Below are positions 29,534-41,700 of a stretch of 51,912 nucleotides of DNA, piece after piece. A model generated the notes under the pieces. The model had not been told where the DNA came from. It ran no database searches and was given only the letters and a program-made list of their open reading frames with translations. The stretch comes from a virus. Taxonomy: Duplodnaviria; Heunggongvirae; Uroviricota; Caudoviricetes. Position 1 is the first letter of the stretch. Each line of letters opens with the position of its first letter. The stretch lies in IMG/VR virus record IMGVR_UViG_2718218100_000010; one strand, 5' to 3'. The position numbers and the translations under genes were made by a program.

Positions 29534-31383
29534 TATGCTGCCGGTGCATTTATCTCCAGCACCAGACTTTCTATCTCAACGCCATACGCTGCATTTTTTG
29601 TAACATCCGTCAGCGTCAGCGCATTCAGCCCCAGTGTCAGACTGTCTTTTATAACCTGGAATGCCGGGCCAGCCACTCCATTCAGTTTCGGAGTAACCGT
29701 GGCACTGCCGGCGGTGAACACCAGCTCCAGCGTCTGCCAGTCGTTACCGTAATCGCCGAACTCCCCCAGCTTCGTGTTTCCGGCTTTCCTGTGATGCATC
29801 AGATTCACTCTGCCGTCAGTGGTCTGAGTGAAGTACGACATCAGGAACGGATTACCGGTACCCGTCATCGCCACACCATCAGGAACGGGAGCATCCGTAT
29901 ACAGATAAATCCCCAGCCCGAACTGATTGTTGGTCAGCGCGCCTGACAGGCGGAACTTACAGGTCAGTCTGCCGCCCTGTGTCAGCAGGGTAATTGCGTC
30001 ATCCACCGGATGCGTCAGGGACCAGGTTTTATTGCTCTGCCTGGTGATCTTAAATACACCATCTGACAACTGAATTCCGCCATCCTTAATGCTCCAGCCC
30101 TGCGCAGCAGCCTCTCCGTCTGCCGGCAGCAGGGAGATTGTGCGAACGGACGTATCTGCAGACGGACCCGATGGCGTGTTGCCGCCGGGCGAGGGTTTGA
30201 TTTCCGGTGCCTTACCACTGATGAAGGCTGAGGTGCGCCCGGCTGCGTTCAGAATAGCGGTTGCCAGACGATCCGGAATAATGCTCCTGCGCGCCCATGA
30301 ACTGAAATGTGTCGGGCGGTTTGATGATACCTGGTTTCCATTCGTTCTCGATGCCGCACCGTAATATCCTGATGCCGGAATATCCGGATCTTCTGCCGGC
30401 GCGTTAGTGGCGGTATTGACGCCGTTACCGTCTGTCATGAAGGGCACAAAATAAACGCCCTCACTCTCCCTGTTTTTATACCCGCCGTACACGGTGTCGT
30501 ACTGGGTAGCGTATGTATTTTTCCAGTAATACGTCGTGTCACCACAAATCCACGGCACATCTGCAGCACTGCCACCATGGCACTGCGCGTTAAACACGGA
30601 GAGGTCAGCACGAAACTGTGTCAGCATGGCTGTAAACAGCGCAGGTTGCTGTGCGTGGGTGGCGGCGCTCATGTCAAACTCACCCTGCATCCAGCAGACG
30701 GCCAGCAGAACGTTTTTGGGATTTTTCTGCAATGCCGCTTTTGTGCGGGAAATCAGATCCTGATATAACGGCTTGCCCCCCCCCCAGCGTGCCGAATCCT
30801 GACTGGCCCCCGTGGACTCGCTGAATGTCCCCTCCGCGCCCTGGGTAAATGCCGAACCACCACGACAGCATGGTACCAGCAGGATCCCCGCGTTATTCGG
30901 GATATACGGGAGCAGTTTTTTGGCAATATGTAAGCCCTGGCCGACACAGCCGTACTGCCCTTTGCTCAGGTCTGCCTTCGGATGATTCAGCGTACTCATA
31001 TCCTGCACATCATGCAGGCAGTGGTCGGCCGGAATAATATCGTTATATCTGTAGGCAGCCCCACCCGGCGTCACTGTACTGCGGCGCGCCAGCTGTTTAA
31101 TGCGCGGATCCGGAGCATCGTATGAATCCGGCAGCGGAAGCCCTTCACCGTAAGCCATGGCATTGGACTGCCCGGCCAGTACGATGACGTAGTACCAATC
31201 CGGCTCAGTTGCACCACTGACCACCACATCACCTTCTGCTGTAATCGCCTGCATCAGGGTATAAGGGGTTATGGCCACCGGACTACCAAACGGCTGCCAG
31301 CCCTCTTTCAGTTTGTGTGTCAGCTTTTCCGCAAGGTCTGACGGCGACGCCGCCCTGACAACATCATAATGTTTAAATGTCAT
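29533..31383 (-). CDS. Prophage sialate O-acetylesterase NanS-p-like, 616 aa
   Basis: SGNH-like GQSNAMAYG active-site motif; size and position between Q/tRNAs and holin as for nanS-p in Stx-type phages; GGGAGG RBS. Confidence 0.75.
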   Translation of the reverse strand: MTFKHYDVVRAASPSDLAEKLTHKLKEGWQPFGSPVAITPYTLMQAITAEGDVVVSGATEPDWYYVIVLAGQSNAMAYGEGLPLPDSYDAPDPRIKQLARRSTVTPGGAAYRYNDIIPADHCLHDVQDMSTLNHPKADLSKGQYGCVGQGLHIAKKLLPYIPNNAGILLVPCCRGGSAFTQGAEGTFSESTGASQDSARWGGGKPLYQDLISRTKAALQKNPKNVLLAVCWMQGEFDMSAATHAQQPALFTAMLTQFRADLSVFNAQCHGGSAADVPWICGDTTYYWKNTYATQYDTVYGGYKNRESEGVYFVPFMTDGNGVNTATNAPAEDPDIPASGYYGAASRTNGNQVSSNRPTHFSSWARRSIIPDRLATAILNAAGRTSAFISGKAPEIKPSPGGNTPSGPSADTSVRTISLLPADGEAAAQGWSIKDGGIQLSDGVFKITRQSNKTWSLTHPVDDAITLLTQGGRLTCKFRLSGALTNNQFGLGIYLYTDAPVPDGVAMTGTGNPFLMSYFTQTTDGRVNLMHHRKAGNTKLGEFGDYGNDWQTLELVFTAGSATVTPKLNGVAGPAFQVIKDSLTLGLNALTLTDVTKNAAYGVEIESLVLEINAPAA

Positions 31384-31426
31384 TATTCCTCCCGGCCGGG
31401 ATAGTGTATTAAATCAGATATGGAGT

Positions 31427-31471
31427 GGGCTGTAGTCCGGAAGCCTGAATGACACACGGGGACTACAGCCC
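31427..31471. promoter_or_regulatory. Perfect 12-bp inverted repeat with 21-bp spacer upstream of nanS-p
   Basis: gggctgtagtcc at 31427-31438 and ggactacagccc at 31460-31471, about 45 bp upstream of the nanS-p start. Confidence 0.5.
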
Positions 31472-31789
31472 AAGAAATGAAAAAAGGCCACGCAGTTGCG
31501 CAGCCTGATAAACCCTGGTTAAAATCCACACGATAACAACACAACAATATCAGTATCTCATGCTATTGCCCGAACCCATTCGGGCATTTTTTACCCATAA
31601 AAAAGCCCCTCCGGAGAGGGGCATGTTTGCATGCACATTCTTTTTCTTGCATGGTGCCGGGTGCCTCCCGGTGAATTCAGTATCAGCACCTGAATCCGCG
31701 ATTATCCCATATACCTGGTTGCTGATCGCCCCTCCGCACAGGGGGATTCACCATGCAGAAGTGTTTTTAATAAACAGCAAACAAAAAAA

Positions 31790-31957
31790 TCAAGCATTAT
31801 GCAGGCTGTTTCTTTTTATCACCGGCCACAGCAATACCACAATGCCGCAGACCAGCACCCCATCCGCCAGCACCGACATGATTCTGCTGGTGAAATCCAC
31901 CATCACCACCAGAAACAGCAGGAGTGCAGCCACAGCCAGGCGCAGTTTTACCGTCAC
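31790..31957 (-). CDS. Candidate 55-aa two-helix membrane protein, translationally coupled to the TerB-like gene
   Basis: GTG overlaps the TerB-like stop (GTGA) with GGAG upstream; hand translation VTVKLRLAVAALLLFLVVMVDFTSRIMSVLADGVLVCGIVVLLWPVIKRNSLHNA. Confidence 0.35.
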   Translation of the reverse strand: MTVKLRLAVAALLLFLVVMVDFTSRIMSVLADGVLVCGIVVLLWPVIKRNSLHNA

Positions 31958-32385
31958 AGGTGATTCTCCAGACGAAGACCCAGAACACCGGCAATCTCTT
32001 CCAGCACCTTGCGCTCTTCCGGCTCAATTTCGCCGTCTGCCTCCGCAATGGCCACCGCCACATCCAGCACATCTTCCGCTTCACGCGTATCGTGTTTCAC
32101 ATCCTCAATCTCGCGTAACGCGGCACGACGACCAATTTTAAAATTGGTATCCAGCTGACCGATAATAGTTGCGCTAATCGCATTAATTTCCGAGGTAAAC
32201 GCAGACAACGCAGGCTGATTACGTAAGACCTGTTCGATCTTCGCTTTCTCGGATGCCTCGCATTCACCATCTGCACAGGCCACCAGGTATGCAGCGTTAA
32301 TCACCGCCTGTGCCAGATCGCGTTTCTCAAACTTTTTAATTTCCGCTGCCGCTCTGCGGGTTTTCTTTTTGAAGATTCCAAACAT
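31954..32385 (-). CDS. TerB-like (tellurite-resistance TerB fold) protein, 143 aa
   Basis: Internal ATG of ORF 31954..32457 with AAGGAA RBS; acidic helical protein with ...AVINAAYLVACADGECEASEKAKIEQVL...AIAEADGEIEPEERKVLEEIAGVLGL pattern. Confidence 0.55.
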   Translation of the reverse strand: MFGIFKKKTRRAAAEIKKFEKRDLAQAVINAAYLVACADGECEASEKAKIEQVLRNQPALSAFTSEINAISATIIGQLDTNFKIGRRAALREIEDVKHDTREAEDVLDVAVAIAEADGEIEPEERKVLEEIAGVLGLRLENHL

Positions 32386-32512
32386 CGTGACGTTCCTTTG
32401 GGTGGGTGAGCCAACGCCCGGGAGCGATCTGCCCACAGAGAAAGTCACACTGACCACTCCGTAAGCTCACCCCCGAAAGGCTCTGTGGTTGATATGCGCC
32501 GGGCGTGGCGCG

Positions 32513-32540
32513 GATACAAAAAAGGCCGCCAATAGCGACC
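32513..32540 (-). terminator. Intrinsic terminator after the two-gene cassette
   Basis: Minus strand ggtcgc-tatt-ggcggcc (one G-U pair) followed by TTTTTTGTATC; homologous to 33110-33138. Confidence 0.5.
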
Positions 32541-32563
32541 TCAGTTACGGGATTATTCTGGGG

Positions 32564-32785
32564 TTAAACGACTGTTACTCCCCCCCAGACAAAATCATCA
32601 CTTCCTGTTCGATGCGAGCCATAGTGAACCTCGTACTTATCTCCCATCTTTCTTGCTTCCGTTTCTGCGTCTCCCTCTGTCGCAAAAACCCCAACAAGAT
32701 GCCAGGGCGAGCTTCTTACCACAGCCCAACCTTTAACCCATCCTTTGTTGTCCTTATCTTCCATTAACACTTCAGAAACAAACAT
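32564..32785 (-). CDS. Uncharacterised small protein, 73 aa (cassette gene 2)
   Basis: Strong RBS AAGGAGATAAAT-ATG; Trp-rich (GWVKGWAVV...PWHLVGVF...); no signal peptide. Confidence 0.5.
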   Translation of the reverse strand: MFVSEVLMEDKDNKGWVKGWAVVRSSPWHLVGVFATEGDAETEARKMGDKYEVHYGSHRTGSDDFVWGGVTVV

Positions 32786-32837
32786 ATTTATCTCCTTGTG
32801 GGTACCCGGAGATATTTTATGATTGCTCCCGGTCAGA

Positions 32838-33062
32838 TCAATAAAGTGGCTTCAATTTTGCCTTAATGATCAAATCAGGGTGATTGACGGAATCGTACAC
32901 CACCTCAATATTTTCATCCGTGGCGTCGATAAGATATTCTTTTACATAAGGACCTGTTGATTTTCCATGAAATACATCTTCAACAAGTACACTCTCCCCC
33001 TGAACAACACGAAAACTAACTTCTGTTTCGAACGGACCAATCGTCACCATCAGTTTTTTCAC
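32838..33062 (-). CDS. Uncharacterised small protein, 74 aa (cassette gene 1)
   Basis: GTG start preceded by AGGAGG; MKKLMVTIGPFETEVSFRVVQGESVLVEDVFHGKSTGPYVKEYLIDATDENIEVVYDSVNHPDLIIKAKLKPLY; no signal peptide. Confidence 0.5.
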   Translation of the reverse strand: MKKLMVTIGPFETEVSFRVVQGESVLVEDVFHGKSTGPYVKEYLIDATDENIEVVYDSVNHPDLIIKAKLKPLY

Positions 33063-33109
33063 ATAGCCTCCTGATAAGCACTCGATTTATTAGTTAATGG
33101 TGTAACGCA

Positions 33110-33138
33110 GATACAAAAAAGGCCCGCAAAAGCGAGCC
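33110..33138 (-). terminator. Intrinsic terminator after the tRNA cluster
   Basis: Minus strand ggctcgc-tttt-gcgggcc followed by TTTTTTGTATC. Confidence 0.55.
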
Positions 33139-33151
33139 AGGTAAATAAATA

Positions 33152-33228
33152 TGGCGCGTTGTACTGGATTCGAACCAGTGACCGATTGCTTAGAAGGCAA
33201 TTGCTCTGTCCGGCTGAGCTAACAACGC
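33152..33228 (-). tRNA. tRNA-Arg (anticodon UCU), 77 nt
   Basis: Cloverleaf folded by hand: acceptor GCGTTGT/ACAACGC, D-arm GCTC..GAGC, anticodon stem ATTGC/GCAAT with loop CTTCTAA, T-loop TTCGAAT, 3' GCCA. Confidence 0.85.
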
Positions 33229-33241
33229 AGGGTACGGATAA

Positions 33242-33318
33242 TGGACCGCCATCGAGGACTCGAACCCCGCGCAACCAGCTTCGAAGGCTGGCGCTCTATC
33301 CCGATGAGCTAATGGCGG
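33242..33318 (-). tRNA. tRNA-Arg (anticodon UCG), 77 nt
   Basis: Cloverleaf folded by hand: acceptor CCGCCAT/ATGGCGG, anticodon stem CCAGC/GCTGG with loop CTTCGAA, T-loop TTCGAGT, 3' TCCA. Confidence 0.8.
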
Positions 33319-33325
33319 TATGTGA

Positions 33326-33401
33326 TGGTGGCCCTTGCTGGATTTGAACCAGCGACCTGGCGATTATGAGTCGCTCGCTCTCACCACTGAGCTAAAGGGC
33401 C
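33326..33401 (-). tRNA. tRNA with CAU anticodon (Met, or Ile2 if lysidine-modified), 76 nt
   Basis: Acceptor GGCCCTT/AAGGGCC, anticodon loop CTCATAA, T-loop TTCAAAT, 3' ACCA; first tRNA after Q as in many lambdoid prophages. Confidence 0.8.
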
Positions 33402-33547: not shown

Positions 33548-34090
33548 TCAAGCTATTTTTTGAGCAAATGATTCTCGCATGGGAATATATAGGGCATACT
33601 CAGCAACAGCCAACCAATTAGCAATTCGCTTTTCGCATGTGCTAAAACACCACTCAGGATGTGCATCATTTAGCAATTCAGCCATTTTGCGCTTAGTCAT
33701 CCCCCGACCTTCATACCGTTGCTGGAGGACACTAATCAATCCCGGATGTTCTGCCAGCACCTCACTTATAACCCGATCAACACATAACGCCTCTGCATCA
33801 GTACAATGCGCCAGCCAGCTCTTTTGCTTACCATTGATCATCTCTCGCAAAAACGCTTCCAGCTCAGGTTTCTCTATTCCCGCTTTTTTCATCCTCCGGA
33901 GCGCCTCGTTAATTGCCGTTTTTGTCAGCTTTTTAGAGGTCAGTAATTGGTTGAACATATTTCCCGTCTTACCGCCGCCAATATACGACCAACGCCCCCA
34001 CATACGCAGTTTCCCCTGGAGCCAGACACTTTCCAGCGTGGTGAGACGAAGGTGTTCCCCGCTTTTTCCTGTATTCGTTGGGTAAATCAT
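33548..34090 (-). CDS. Putative late-gene antiterminator Q, 180 aa
   Basis: Internal ATG (MIYPTNTGK...) with GGAGAAAGGAGGG RBS, overlapping the upstream stop (ATGA); last gene before tR'/tRNAs/late genes; assignment by position, not strong motif. Confidence 0.55.
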   Translation of the reverse strand: MIYPTNTGKSGEHLRLTTLESVWLQGKLRMWGRWSYIGGGKTGNMFNQLLTSKKLTKTAINEALRRMKKAGIEKPELEAFLREMINGKQKSWLAHCTDAEALCVDRVISEVLAEHPGLISVLQQRYEGRGMTKRKMAELLNDAHPEWCFSTCEKRIANWLAVAEYALYIPMRESFAQKIA

Positions 34091-35035: not shown

Positions 35036-35209
35036 TCATTCCCGAACCACCTTGAAACCGAGCCTTTCCAGGTATTCAATGAATGCCTCGATAGATAAAA
35101 TCACATGATCATCAGGAATTAACGTTGTGTAGATAACGTCTCCATTCTCAACGCGCACAGCATAGAGGCCATTTTCACTAAAAATTTCACGCAATTCTTC
35201 GATTTTCAT
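35036..35209 (-). CDS. Candidate 57-aa acidic small protein
   Basis: GGAAGGA RBS 7 nt before the ATG; hand translation MKIEELREIFSENGLYAVRVENGDVIYTTLIPDDHVILSIEAFIEYLERLGFKVVRE; below track cutoff. Confidence 0.35.
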   Translation of the reverse strand: MKIEELREIFSENGLYAVRVENGDVIYTTLIPDDHVILSIEAFIEYLERLGFKVVRE

Positions 35210-35371
35210 CAACAGAATCCTTCCAGATAAATAGCACTCCCCTGTTCGGGGTCCATCCCTCTTCTCCCTGCGCGCTAATTAAGTGAATCGATTCTAGTCA
35301 GGCATACCAGCTAATCAACAAACCCTGGTCGGTTAAATAGAAGGATTGGCTAAAATTTACCCCATTAAAAT

Positions 35372-35395
35372 AAAAAACCCGCCGAAGCGGGTTTT
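35372..35395 (-). terminator. Bidirectional intrinsic terminator (copy 1 of an identical 23-nt repeat)
   Basis: aaaaaacccgccgaagcgggttt; identical 23-mer at 36214-36236. Confidence 0.6.
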
Positions 35396-35409
35396 CATTG
35401 GAAGCACCT

Positions 35410-35895
35410 TTAGTTTTGCTGTTCTATTTTAAGCTTGATAGTTTCATACAAAACAATAGTTGCGCCTGTTTTACATAATTCCCGGCTGTCATACGCGCGA
35501 GACCAATAACACAACCAGTTCTCGAGATCTTCTCGGGTATAGGTTTTGCAGGCCAGCCCCTCTGCCATTTCCACGATTTCATCGCCTGGTGCTGTTAACT
35601 CATAGCCATTCAACAACAAGAAGACGTAACCAGCCATCATAGCTGTTCGTTTGTTCGCATTAGCAAACGGATGATTCTGAATCAGACTTTCAATCAATAC
35701 CGATGCCAGTACAAACATGTCATTGATCTGTTCATACCATCGAACCATGCTGGGACGGGCCTGAGAAGAACTTAAGTTATCTGGACTCAGAACACCAACA
35801 GGTTCATCTGGTGTTTGAAGCTCAATTAAAAGGCGATTGATTTCAGTAAGATCATCAACCGAAAGATAGTGCACTCCTTCAACAATCTCAGCCAT
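35410..35895 (-). CDS. Doc-family (Fic-fold) toxin-like protein, 161 aa
   Basis: Doc-type active-site motif HPFANANKRTA; ATG MAEIVEG in frame with the track's TTG start at 35904. Confidence 0.65.
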   Translation of the reverse strand: MAEIVEGVHYLSVDDLTEINRLLIELQTPDEPVGVLSPDNLSSSQARPSMVRWYEQINDMFVLASVLIESLIQNHPFANANKRTAMMAGYVFLLLNGYELTAPGDEIVEMAEGLACKTYTREDLENWLCYWSRAYDSRELCKTGATIVLYETIKLKIEQQN

Positions 35896-35913
35896 AGAGC
35901 ACAATACCCATTA

Positions 35914-36093
35914 TTACACTTTTGAAAGTTCTTCCATTGCCTTCTCGTAACGAGAAAAACCGAAATCGAAAGCATTTTTCACCTGCTCACGATGCGTGCA
36001 ATTTTCATCAATAGCCGGGCGCGGAGCTGCCACAACGCTTTTATCGCGAGGGGGAATAGTCAATCGCGGGTGTTTTTTTAGTGCGTAGCTCAT
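35914..36093 (-). CDS. Candidate antitoxin partner of the Doc-like toxin, 59 aa (not Phd-like)
   Basis: Hand translation MSYALKKHPRLTIPPRDKSVVAAPRPAIDENCTHREQVKNAFDFGFSRYEKAMEELSKV; stop about 18 nt before the Doc ATG; imperfect inverted repeat aggctaatgttgttagcatagcct upstream. Confidence 0.4.
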   Translation of the reverse strand: MSYALKKHPRLTIPPRDKSVVAAPRPAIDENCTHREQVKNAFDFGFSRYEKAMEELSKV

Positions 36094-36213
36094 TGGGTGT
36101 ACCCTTACTTCTCCGTCCTGTTCTTTAACAAAAAATCAAGTCAATACAAAATTAGTCAGGCTAATGTTGTTAGCATAGCCTAATACCAATCGTATTCACA
36201 ACCACAGTACGTG

Positions 36214-36236
36214 AAAAAACCCGCCGAAGCGGGTTT
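36214..36236 (-). terminator. Intrinsic terminator after hok (copy 2 of the identical 23-nt repeat)
   Basis: aaaaaacccgccgaagcgggttt, identical to 35372-35394. Confidence 0.6.
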
Positions 36237-36303: not shown

Positions 36304-36459
36304 TTACTCCTCAGATTCGTAAGCTGTGAAGACAGCGACCTCCGTCTGGCCGGTTCGGATTCGTACCTCGCAGAGGTCTTTCCTCGTTACCAGTGCCGTC
36401 ACTATGACGGTTAAACAGATGACGATCAGGGCGATTAACATCGCCTTTTGCTGCTTCAT
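36304..36459 (-). CDS. hokD: Hok/Gef-family type I toxin, 51 aa (HokD/RelF-like)
   Basis: MKQQKAMLIALIVICLTVIVTALVTRKDLCEVRIRTGQTEVAVFTAYESEE; AAGGAG RBS; the track ORF 36304..36516 includes the upstream mok-like extension. Confidence 0.8.
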   Translation of the reverse strand: MKQQKAMLIALIVICLTVIVTALVTRKDLCEVRIRTGQTEVAVFTAYESEE

Positions 36460-40193: not shown

Positions 40194-40932
40194 TGGTTGC
40201 CTCCTGGCAAAGCTGGGCGACAATATCGCGATATTTATTCAGCTCCCGCAGCGCGACACAGACTCGCTCCCATTTCCGGATATCACTTTTCGCCCGACGC
40301 AGTTCGCGGTTTGCCTGTCGCAGCGATGGCAGAACCAGATTATCCACTCGCTTCTCAAGCGGCTGCACAATGTCTGCCACAGTTTCTGTTTTAATATCTT
40401 CCTGTGTTGCAGCTTCCTGTCCCGGTAACGCAGCACCTGCTGGCTGAGGAAAGGCCTTACCATCACTTTCCGTTACCAGCGCGGCTTTCGGCTCTGCTGG
40501 TAAATTATCGCCCGGCATGCAGTAACGAAATTTACCGTTCTGATTAACGCGTGCCAGCCGCCCCGTTGCGGTTACCACCGCCAGCGTGGAAGCAACCTTG
40601 CGAGTACTGACACCGAACTTACCCGCCAGTTCCTCACACGTTTTAGCCCCATCCTGACCGATAAACTCAATCATCATGTCTGCGGTAACTTTTTGTTCGA
40701 CCTCCCCGGTCAGCATATCCTGTGCTTCAGATTTTACTGGCCGCTCTTCGGTTACCCGGGATTCACCTTCGCCAGCCAGAAACCAGGTGTGACCAGTTTT
40801 ATCAACGACGCCATTTCTTTTGAGTTCCCACAGCTCGTTGACAGCCTCTTCACGACTGATATCAAGTCGCGCAGCCAGTTCTACCGACGTGGCTTTTCCC
40901 ATTGCTTTCAGTGCGTCAAATACAGTTTCCAT
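40180..40932 (-). CDS. Hypothetical protein with N-terminal winged-helix-like segment, 250 aa
   Basis: ATG at 40932 ([30 protein letters not shown]) with GGAGG RBS; directly downstream of the DnaC-like gene. Confidence 0.45.
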
Positions 40933-40953
40933 TAAAACGTCCTCCAACAAAAA

Positions 40954-41700
40954 TTACTTCGCAATTCCTGGCTGACCAACATTCGGACGCCAGCTCTCCC
41001 AGTTAAAATTCACCCATCGCCCGCCGTTCATGGTCATGCGATCCATAATCCGCTCACCGAGCAATGTTTTCATGGCCTCATAGTTCAGGTTTGTCAGCAT
41101 CCCCACGCTGCGCATCGACGCTGTCCGGCGATCAACAATCTGATGCAGCACCACCTGCTCGTTTTTCGTCTCGCGCTGAATGCCAATTTCATCAAGAACC
41201 AGCAGATCCACTTCGCACAGCTCCCGCAAAAATTTTTCGCCTGACTGCCCGTCGTCATAGCTGGCGTGCAGGGCGCTCATAACATCAGCCACGGTAACCA
41301 CAATCACTGTCTGACCGTCTTTCAGCAGGCGATTCCCGATAGCTGCCGCTAAGTGATTCTTCCCGGTACCAGGTTTTCCGCTGAACGAAAAATTTGTACA
41401 CCCGGTCATCAGTTCATCGGCGATGGATTTCGCCTGGCTTAACGCGTATCGCTGGCCGTCGTTCTGCACCTGGTAATTCGCAAACGAGCATTTACGGTGC
41501 AACGGCTGGATGCCAGAGCGATTCAGAATTTTTTCCACCCGCAACTGACGATTCAGGCGGTTGATCTCCTCGCAACGTTTCTGTCCTTCAGCAAGTTGCC
41601 ACTCACGCCACTCCGCAACCGTTCTGAATGGGGCGGTTACATGTGGTGGGGTCAGTCTGCGGATACGCTCCAGAACGCCGCCTGTCGCAATATTTTTCAT
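40954..41700 (-). CDS. DnaC-like helicase loader (IstB-like AAA+ ATPase), 248 aa
   Basis: Walker A GKPGTGKNHLAAAIG and Walker B LLVLDEIG; position after the O-like gene. Confidence 0.85.
   Translation of the reverse strand: MKNIATGGVLERIRRLTPPHVTAPFRTVAEWREWQLAEGQKRCEEINRLNRQLRVEKILNRSGIQPLHRKCSFANYQVQNDGQRYALSQAKSIADELMTGCTNFSFSGKPGTGKNHLAAAIGNRLLKDGQTVIVVTVADVMSALHASYDDGQSGEKFLRELCEVDLLVLDEIGIQRETKNEQVVLHQIVDRRTASMRSVGMLTNLNYEAMKTLLGERIMDRMTMNGGRWVNFNWESWRPNVGQPGIAK

Follow-up and report, generated by a model that had tools for sequence, protein, structure and literature searches.

The stretch of DNA analysed here, IMG/VR virus record IMGVR_UViG_2718218100_000010 (Caudoviricetes; 51,912 nucleotides (nt), called the window in the following), carries a gene for a toxin of the Doc family that is directly preceded by an open reading frame (ORF) of 59 codons, and the two are enclosed between two identical terminator hairpins. 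This arrangement raises the questions of whether the 59-amino-acid (aa) product serves as the antitoxin of the Doc-family protein, and of how the two-gene cassette came to lie between the two hairpins. As the answer that we consider probable, although well short of certain, we propose that the pair is a self-contained two-gene type II toxin-antitoxin (TA) module, which is carried as an optional "moron" in the nin region of a Rac-like lambdoid prophage.

The source prophage is Rac-like and lambdoid and lies between uspF and intR, and the cassette occupies a position in its nin region, with the replication genes on one side and the late-gene regulator on the other. A 1-kb query from the locus is 100% identical to Escherichia coli 2013C-3264 and to several O157:H7 genomes. 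On the minus strand, read from 5' to 3', hokD is followed by a hairpin with a T run, a 120-nt spacer, the 59-codon ORF, an 18-nt gap, the 161-codon Doc gene and a second hairpin.

Linkage and co-divergence of the two genes

The gene for the 59-aa partner, the presumed antitoxin (35914-36093, minus strand; WP_000119356.1, phrog_2208), immediately preceded a Doc homologue at all loci of the three main sets. Thus, the two genes were adjacent in 9 of 9 species-representative genomes (Serratia, Kluyvera, Citrobacter, Hafnia, Rosenbergiella, Yersinia, two Xenorhabdus species and one Orbaceae bacterium) and in 80 of 80 viral contigs, 49 of them E. coli-type and 31 diverged. When the search was run in the reverse direction, from three Doc homologues, the partner was again present at all seven loci reached, including two in which the gene caller had missed the small ORF. 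The same adjacency was also observed at three metagenomic loci (L020-L022) and in the Pseudomonas phages Sirocco and LPPA56. Furthermore, a mirror-tree comparison of the partner and Doc distances gave r = 0.89, and none of 5000 Mantel permutations reached so high a value. The small, adjacent and co-oriented gene pair typical of type II systems is therefore kept across lineages, with an intergenic gap of 0-18 nt (17 loci), and the suggestion, originally made from the letters of the window alone, that the 59-aa ORF is the upstream partner of the toxin gene is borne out by its conserved and obligate linkage.

In one record, that of Salmonella phage SW-37 (CP051275.1; L005:2193-2991), the partner and Doc genes are both split by frameshifts, reflecting either a decayed module or sequencing errors in the record.

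The 59-aa partner

The partner ORF ends 18 nt before the ATG of the Doc gene, where the sequence-only reading had placed it; however, its description there as unannotated does not hold, since RefSeq lists the product as WP_000119356.1, "hypothetical protein", and the source labels of the family read "hypothetical" or "bacteriophage protein". A Shine-Dalgarno site precedes the partner in 17 of 17 diverse loci, the orthologues from E. coli to Pseudomonas phages are 55-78% identical, and dN/dS is 0.05-0.14 for the pairs with unsaturated synonymous sites. By these measures of the sequences, the 59-aa ORF is a genuine protein-coding gene under purifying selection. The same reading had named poor conservation, or a lack of translation evidence, in homologous loci as grounds for abandoning the pair; the low dN/dS, the conserved Shine-Dalgarno site and the obligate linkage all point the other way.

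Scans of the partner against Pfam, NCBIfam (E <= 0.1) and PADLOC returned no match, and its sole family match was phrog_2208, of unknown function. A PDB profile search yielded chance matches only, to ribosomal protein S25 and a RES-domain protein, and no Phd. When a profile was searched against 1.84 billion representative proteins, only 39 partner-family clusters were recovered; all but two of them are stand-alone proteins of 38-95 aa and none is fused to another domain, while the two exceptions, of 2917 and 1274 aa, show several weak partial repeat matches. The partner family is thus an unnamed one with neither a known domain nor a DNA-binding part, which is unusual for partners of Doc but has parallels elsewhere.

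The Doc-family toxin

The Doc-family (Fic-fold) toxin gene (35410-35895, minus strand; TIGR01550, PF02661, phrog_577) starts with ATG and encodes a product of 161 aa. This product scored 127.1 bits against TIGR01550, "death-on-curing family toxin" (cut-off 38.65; E 3.9e-37), and 45.4 bits against the Pfam Fic family PF02661 (cut-off 24; E 1.5e-11), and it matched the PHROG "Doc-like toxin" family phrog_577 at 8e-51. Its nearest solved relatives are Enterococcus faecalis Doc (9vzc_A, 6.8e-14) and P1 Doc (3k33, 1.2e-5). Direct reading of the codons at 35647-35673 (minus strand) gives the catalytic motif HPFANANKR at Doc residues 75-83, in agreement with the Doc kinase signature HxFx(D/N)(A/G)NKR (PMC13034048), and the key residues are invariant across 30 homologues. 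The Doc clade comprises more than 230 clusters at 90% identity, for the most part from Enterobacterales, and its members share a C-terminal extension, WLCxWSRxYDSRxLC, which is conserved among them and missing from P1 Doc. Judged by these family matches, the solved relatives and the motif, the toxin is an ordinary member of the known Doc family, as its description as a 161-aa Doc-type Fic protein had anticipated.

At the metagenomic locus L021:705-1920, the partner is followed by two Fic-domain genes, encoding proteins of 145 aa and 242 aa, the second of which is 29% identical to the Doc of the window.

The flanking terminators and the empty sites

The 23-mer AAAAAACCCGCCGAAGCGGGTTT occurs exactly twice in the 51.9-kb window, at 35372-35394 and at 36214-36236, and the copies are 842 bp apart. 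Allowing up to three mismatches gave no further match in the window, and 100 shuffles contained none. On the coding strand, each copy forms a GC hairpin followed by a T run. The copy at 36214-36236 (terminator T2, minus strand) closes the hokD locus at its 3' end and forms the upstream limit of the cassette, and the copy at 35372-35394 (terminator T1, minus strand) is the intrinsic terminator of the two-gene operon itself and the downstream boundary. The terminator scan called only the latter, at 35372-35396, whereas the identical copy at 36214-36236 was not listed. The identical terminator flanks and their spacing were thus correctly recognised in the sequence-only reading.

As a probe for empty sites, the left flank of the window, one terminator copy and the right flank were joined. 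This probe matched in a single piece in E. coli A41 (98.9%) and OkiPb01679 (97.8%), which have the same flanks but, in place of the two hairpins and intervening cassette of the window, a single hairpin. Indeed, that cassette-less related prophages might retain a single copy of the 23-mer had been put forward as a check, and these two prophages do so. The cassette is therefore present or absent at the same site in close relatives that are 98-99% identical across the junction, as is characteristic of a moron. As for signals of its own, the other characteristic of a moron, the terminator is clear and travels with the module, and the promoter candidates are weak, with none passing the scan.

The further proposal that the cassette was inserted by duplication of the terminator had to be given up, since each copy proved to be resident on its own side. 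In 63 phage records without the cassette, the hok-side terminator belongs to the hok locus, and in many hok-bearing phages of this kind the homology to the window begins at this terminator. The core of the doc-side hairpin is also found after doc in Citrobacter, in Xenorhabdus and in 21 of the 31 diverged viral loci, all of them without hok upstream. Because the doc-side terminator follows doc in other genera, the two 23-mer copies are not a duplication made by the insertion. In the O104:H4 lineage, a RelE-type pair takes the place of the downstream neighbour seen in the window, and the hairpin is the exact point at which the homology ends. Probably, two units that end in the same common hairpin were joined or separated by recombination within the hairpin.

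It is also conceivable, although we regard it as doubtful, that the occupied site is the ancestral one, and that deletion between the 23-bp direct repeats removed the cassette from the "empty" prophages. Exact repeats at a distance of 842 bp are a good substrate for deletion, the empty sites are 94-99% identical to the flanks of the window, and the cassette is usually linked to hok in E. coli-type loci, with hokD on its upstream side in 44 of 49 such viral loci. However, hokD is absent from all 31 diverged loci and the cassette occurs without hok in other genera, and hok with its terminator but without the cassette is far commoner, as 3541 genomes match part of the query and 119 match most of it, and 63 phages have the hok end only. 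Other downstream flanks also join exactly at the terminator, as in O104:H4. The lineage of the window may have gained the cassette, or the empty sites may have lost it.

Partner architecture and relation to Phd

Two segments of the partner are conserved. The first is a linear motif in the N-terminal part, RLxIPPRDKS, whose residues R16, D17 and K18 do not vary among close members. The second is the C-terminal segment QVKNAF-F-RYEKAMEELSKV, which reaches the last residue. AlphaFold, supplied with 15 sequences, predicted residues 1-33 to lack secondary structure and residues 34-57 to form one helix (block pLDDT from 82 to 93), and no recognisable DNA-binding fold appeared in this prediction of the partner. 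The Phd/YefM N-terminal domain PF02604 likewise gave no match to the partner, whose residues 1-33 are predicted to have no fold. By the criteria of the family, then, the partner is not a member of Phd/YefM.

The C-terminal helix gives a different picture. In Salmonella Phd, the residues that contact Doc are F56, I59, M60, H63, L67 and L70, among which F56 and L70 form the critical pair, and the protein ends three residues past L70 (PMC9207808). When the two C-termini are aligned end to end without gaps, F42, G45, F46, Y49, M53 and L56 of the partner fall on these contact positions, and E55-L56 fall on E69-L70 of Phd; in this end-anchored alignment, the partner has a hydrophobic or aromatic residue at five of the six positions. 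We also scored the partner-family profile against the P1-type and Salmonella Phd segments. The end-anchored register ranked first among 15 offsets, none of the others having a positive score, and column shuffles matched this score in 26 of 20000 cases when anchored (p = 0.0013) and in 596 of 20000 at any offset (p ~0.03). The statement of the sequence-only reading that the partner does not resemble Phd is therefore right for family membership, for the profile comparison by hhalign and for the N-terminal fold, but too strong for the helix, which appears to share the register of the Phd neutralising segment. The C-terminal element of Phd neutralises Doc by itself when stabilised by a SUMO tag, and some antitoxins consist of the neutralising part alone (PMC10440598); a stand-alone Phd-like neutralising helix, by analogy, would fit this finding.

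A related explanation, which we consider unlikely, is that the partner is a true but very diverged homologue of Phd, namely a Phd-family antitoxin that has lost the N-terminal DNA-binding domain, so that the system is a reduced form of ordinary Phd-Doc. The register does match the Phd contacts F56, M60/F60, H63/L63, L67 and E69-L70, the partner and Phd both end three residues past the last leucine, and the closest solved relatives of the Doc are all paired with Phd. Nevertheless, no sequence or profile method joins the partner to Phd, and the N-terminal 33 residues, with their own invariant IPPRDK motif, are unrelated to any part of Phd. Convergence could give a short amphipathic helix the same register. 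Moreover, all 39 partner-family clusters lack the Phd N-domain and no intermediate forms were seen among them.

Two other modes of inhibition were considered and rejected. Inhibition of the FicA type was discarded because the motif [S/T]xxxE[G/N] is present in only 2 of 54 family members, which is the chance level, and is absent from the partner of the window. Similarly, IPPRDKSVVA was examined as a pseudo-substrate that mimics the EF-Tu loop GGRTVGAG, but this register ranked 13th of 379 windows with a negative score, and the best window anywhere in EF-Tu was no better than shuffled sequence.

The end of the partner gene has a further feature at the level of its codons. In most loci (read in L008-L016, L003, L004 and L028), the last partner codons encode Lys-Val as AAG GTG or AAG GTA and thereby spell AAGGT(G/A), a Shine-Dalgarno-like sequence located 6-13 nt before the Doc start. 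The partner of the window ends in AAA GTG, with a longer gap of 18 nt to Doc. Since the Lys-Val codons form a Shine-Dalgarno-like sequence, the conservation of the partner C-terminus may partly reflect the translation of Doc.

Expression signals and the proposed operator

The partner of the window has the Shine-Dalgarno sequence AAGGG, 8 nt before its ATG. Pairing with the 3' end of 16S rRNA was stronger for the partner than for Doc in 17 of 17 loci, with energies of -5.0 to -10.3 kcal/mol for the partner and +1.3 to -4.7 kcal/mol for Doc. Because of its stronger ribosome-binding site, more of the partner than of Doc would be made.

The 120-nt spacer (36094-36213, minus strand) is presumed to hold the promoter and leader of the two-gene operon, and independent transcription of the module is assumed here. 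Three types of upstream region were found among the E. coli-type loci; the boxes GGTTGT(G/A)A and ATTAG(G/A)CTA are common to two of them, otherwise different, and the third has only the second box. In the window, the shared boxes may be read as a weak -35 element, TTGTGA (36196-36201), and a -10 element, TATGCT (36172-36177), separated by an 18-nt spacer.

The spacer also contains the inverted repeat AGGCTA-N12-TAGCCT at 36158-36181, with perfect arms of 6 bp. Its presence in the promoter region had been pointed out in the sequence-only reading, and there it indeed lies, but the role of an autoregulatory operator suggested for it finds no support. A perfect arm of at least 6 bp appeared in 700 of 2000 shuffles of the 120-nt spacer (35%), so the frequency is at chance level, and the repeat is not maintained in natural variants, being broken by non-compensatory changes in three loci (L036, L040 and L052) whose genes are intact. 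In addition, the partner, in which no DNA-binding fold is predicted, is unlikely to repress its own promoter unaided. Other short palindromes are found at the same place in the other upstream types, and some regulation at the position of the palindrome may exist.

Proposed mechanism

We propose the following mechanism for the module. The small protein would be the antitoxin, made in excess over Doc, and would bind Doc directly through its C-terminal amphipathic helix and thereby hold it inactive. In this complex, F42, F46, Y49, M53 and L56 would stand in for the residues by which the Phd C-terminal segment contacts Doc, so that the small protein would act like the neutralising segment of Phd on its own. 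The N-terminal IPPRDK might provide a second contact with Doc or serve as a protease tag. When the antitoxin is no longer replenished, either through host shut-off by an infecting phage or through loss of the prophage, free Doc would arise, phosphorylate EF-Tu and stop translation. The outcome would be the killing of cells that have lost the prophage, or the abortion of the incoming phage infection. The module itself would have entered or left its site by recombination within the shared terminator sequence.

Several observations weigh against this reading. The consensus promoter scan of the spacer on the minus strand passed no site. Neither hhalign, which gave a probability of 0.2% for the partner against P1 Phd, nor the PDB profile search linked the partner to Phd, and the position of the helix that corresponds to the Phd contact I59/L59 is a glycine (position 45). 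The Phd-like register of the helix, read from aligned sequences, is only suggestive, because the pattern was noticed before it was tested. AlphaFold on Doc alone, with 30 homologues, reached a mean pLDDT of 49, and this model was judged unusable; a Foldseek search with it placed P1 Doc at the top with E = 0.14, which we treated as uninformative. The PADLOC models found no defence-system match for the pair, as Doc matched Fic-domain candidates only weakly (E 0.002-0.04) and the partner matched none. Finally, the three weakest family matches of the partner (P0051, P0048 and P0046; E 1e-4 to 3e-5) have no Doc neighbour.

These three Doc-less homologues, at L023:2100-2249, L017:2354-2542 and L024:1036-1194, respectively, keep the motifs IPxRD and F..F.RY..A..EL(S/A)K. 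P0051 is located within a phage-like run of small overlapping genes, and P0048 stands between an asparagine synthase gene, which precedes it, and a terminator. Each may be an orphan antitoxin, a gene for phage counter-defence or a false positive.

In a more speculative version of the mechanism, which we hold to be improbable, IPPRDK would be a sensor or degradation tag that is hit by the infecting phage or by a host protease activated on infection; the module would then be a Doc-based abortive-infection cassette traded by prophages, and the Doc-less homologues would be counter-defences of phages. That the partner is instead a cofactor, chaperone, targeting subunit or timing regulator, and the pair a phage accessory kinase that acts on host or phage proteins during phage development, is very improbable: the orientation of the module along the early-right operon in the nin region, by which it would be read during lytic growth, the absence of an evident operator or DNA-binding domain, the PHROGs category "moron, auxiliary metabolic gene and host takeover" for Doc-like proteins and the conserved C-terminal extension of this Doc clade, absent from P1 Doc, would suit such a role, but type II pairs typically show this gene order, small size, tight spacing and stronger upstream ribosome site, as well as a partner that is largely disordered apart from one helix, and the module, found also outside lambdoid nin regions in Morganella and Arsenophonus, thus acts as an independent unit.

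Distribution and neighbouring genes

Of 5426 complete E. coli genomes, 119 carry the cassette, among them O157:H7 strains and the lineage behind the O104:H4 outbreak of 2011. On its upstream side in the window, outside the module, is the type I toxin gene hokD (36304-36459, minus strand; Pfam HOK_GEF 2.9e-23 and RefSeq annotation). Elsewhere, the module neighbours hokD and the RelE-type pair (O104:H4), tail genes and a restriction enzyme gene (Morganella) or CRISPR-Cas (Arsenophonus). As context, hokD, the RelE-type pair, the restriction enzyme gene and CRISPR-Cas give mild support to a conflict-related role of the partner/Doc pair.

In the nin region of E. coli O104:H4 2011C-3493 (L002:3357-5085), three TA-type units are adjacent, namely hokD, the partner/Doc pair and a RelE/ParE toxin. 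The last is partnered by a helix-turn-helix protein, and this pair is encoded on the opposite strand. The region looks like a hotspot for TA-type modules.

A 58-aa ORF (35036-35212, minus strand) that matches phrog_340 (3.4e-18), of unknown function, is present just downstream of the cassette and is kept at the empty sites; at this position, RefSeq has only a 78-nt pseudogene fragment (35132-35209). The late-gene regulator is a DUF1133 protein (33548-34090). Between it and the lysis genes, the stretch 30895-33396 encodes tRNA-Met (33326-33396) and a 648-aa DUF6645 protein (30895-32841). Since this is the position at which Shiga-toxin phages carry stx, the DUF6645 gene is likely to be a further add-on whose expression is driven by the late promoter.

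The identical RefSeq record shows frameshifts in the tail-tip gene J (9289-12764), in a protease/capsid fusion gene (21312-23290) and in the replication gene ydaU (40235-41091), together with an internal stop in ralR (48512-48706). Because of these disruptions, the prophage is probably defective unless they are sequencing errors; a defective prophage would be relevant to the question of whom the cassette now serves, the host or a viable phage.

Comparison with known systems

The present pair is best compared with Phd-Doc of P1 and Salmonella Typhimurium, a type II TA system whose Doc phosphorylates EF-Tu. The toxin family and the HxFx(D/N)(A/G)NKR motif are the same, and the two systems further share the order with the antitoxin gene first, the tight spacing and the carriage by prophages. 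To judge from the same hydrophobic register and the same distance to the end, neutralisation in the present pair is probably also achieved by a C-terminal helix. However, the partner lacks the Phd/YefM N-terminal domain and has the conserved IPPRDK instead, no operator is evident for the pair, and the Doc has 161 aa with the conserved C-terminal extension, whereas P1 Doc has 126 aa. P1 persists as a plasmid, unlike the present prophage, which is integrated in the chromosome.

PaaA2, encoded in the paaR2-paaA2-parE2 system of E. coli O157:H7 prophages, is a small, largely disordered antitoxin without a DNA-binding domain; its system has a toxin of the ParE family and a separate regulator gene. 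The present partner is likewise small, largely disordered, prophage-encoded and devoid of a DNA-binding domain, but its toxin is a Doc and the pair has no third gene. FicT-FicA, a class I Fic system with a separate inhibitory-helix antitoxin, also combines a Fic-fold toxin with a small helical partner. Nevertheless, the present toxin has the Doc kinase motif and not that of AMP-transferases, and the partner lacks [S/T]xxxE[G/N].

Phd-Doc of E. faecalis (PDB 9VZC; PMC13034048) contains the nearest solved relative of the present Doc. The C-terminal helix of its antitoxin ends in KELVT, compared with EELSKV in the present partner, but that antitoxin, unlike the partner, is a complete Phd, with DNA binding through a beta-sheet domain and an operator that is a palindrome (PMC13034048). 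In PanA-Phd-C:Doc of Corynebacterium doosanense, a short Phd-C element neutralises Doc and works detached if it is stabilised (PMC10440598). By analogy, this would be the very mechanism that we propose for the stand-alone partner, except that the C. doosanense element is fused to a Panacea domain, whereas the present partner is a free protein of 59 aa with an N-terminal motif of its own.

Significance

A literature search by RefSeq accession numbers, by Doc together with prophage, and by novel antitoxins found no study of the present pair. It was also not named in the retrieved main-text passages of the survey of new antitoxins in Klebsiella (PMC7192599). The pair leaves the understanding of Doc toxins unchanged and would be no surprise to TA specialists.

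The partner accompanies every examined member of this Doc clade, yet it is annotated as "hypothetical", and naming it would correct the annotation of what appears to be an "orphan" toxin in important pathogens. The locus also offers a clean comparison of occupied and empty sites with the junction at a shared terminator hairpin, a small case of the swapping of add-on genes among lambdoid prophages. If the proposal is true, the partner would be a natural Doc antitoxin without a DNA-binding domain and a minimal Doc inhibitor. Such an antitoxin would raise the question of how a module of this kind is regulated without a DNA-binding domain, and it would fit the view of antitoxins as exchangeable linear neutralising pieces (PMC10440598).

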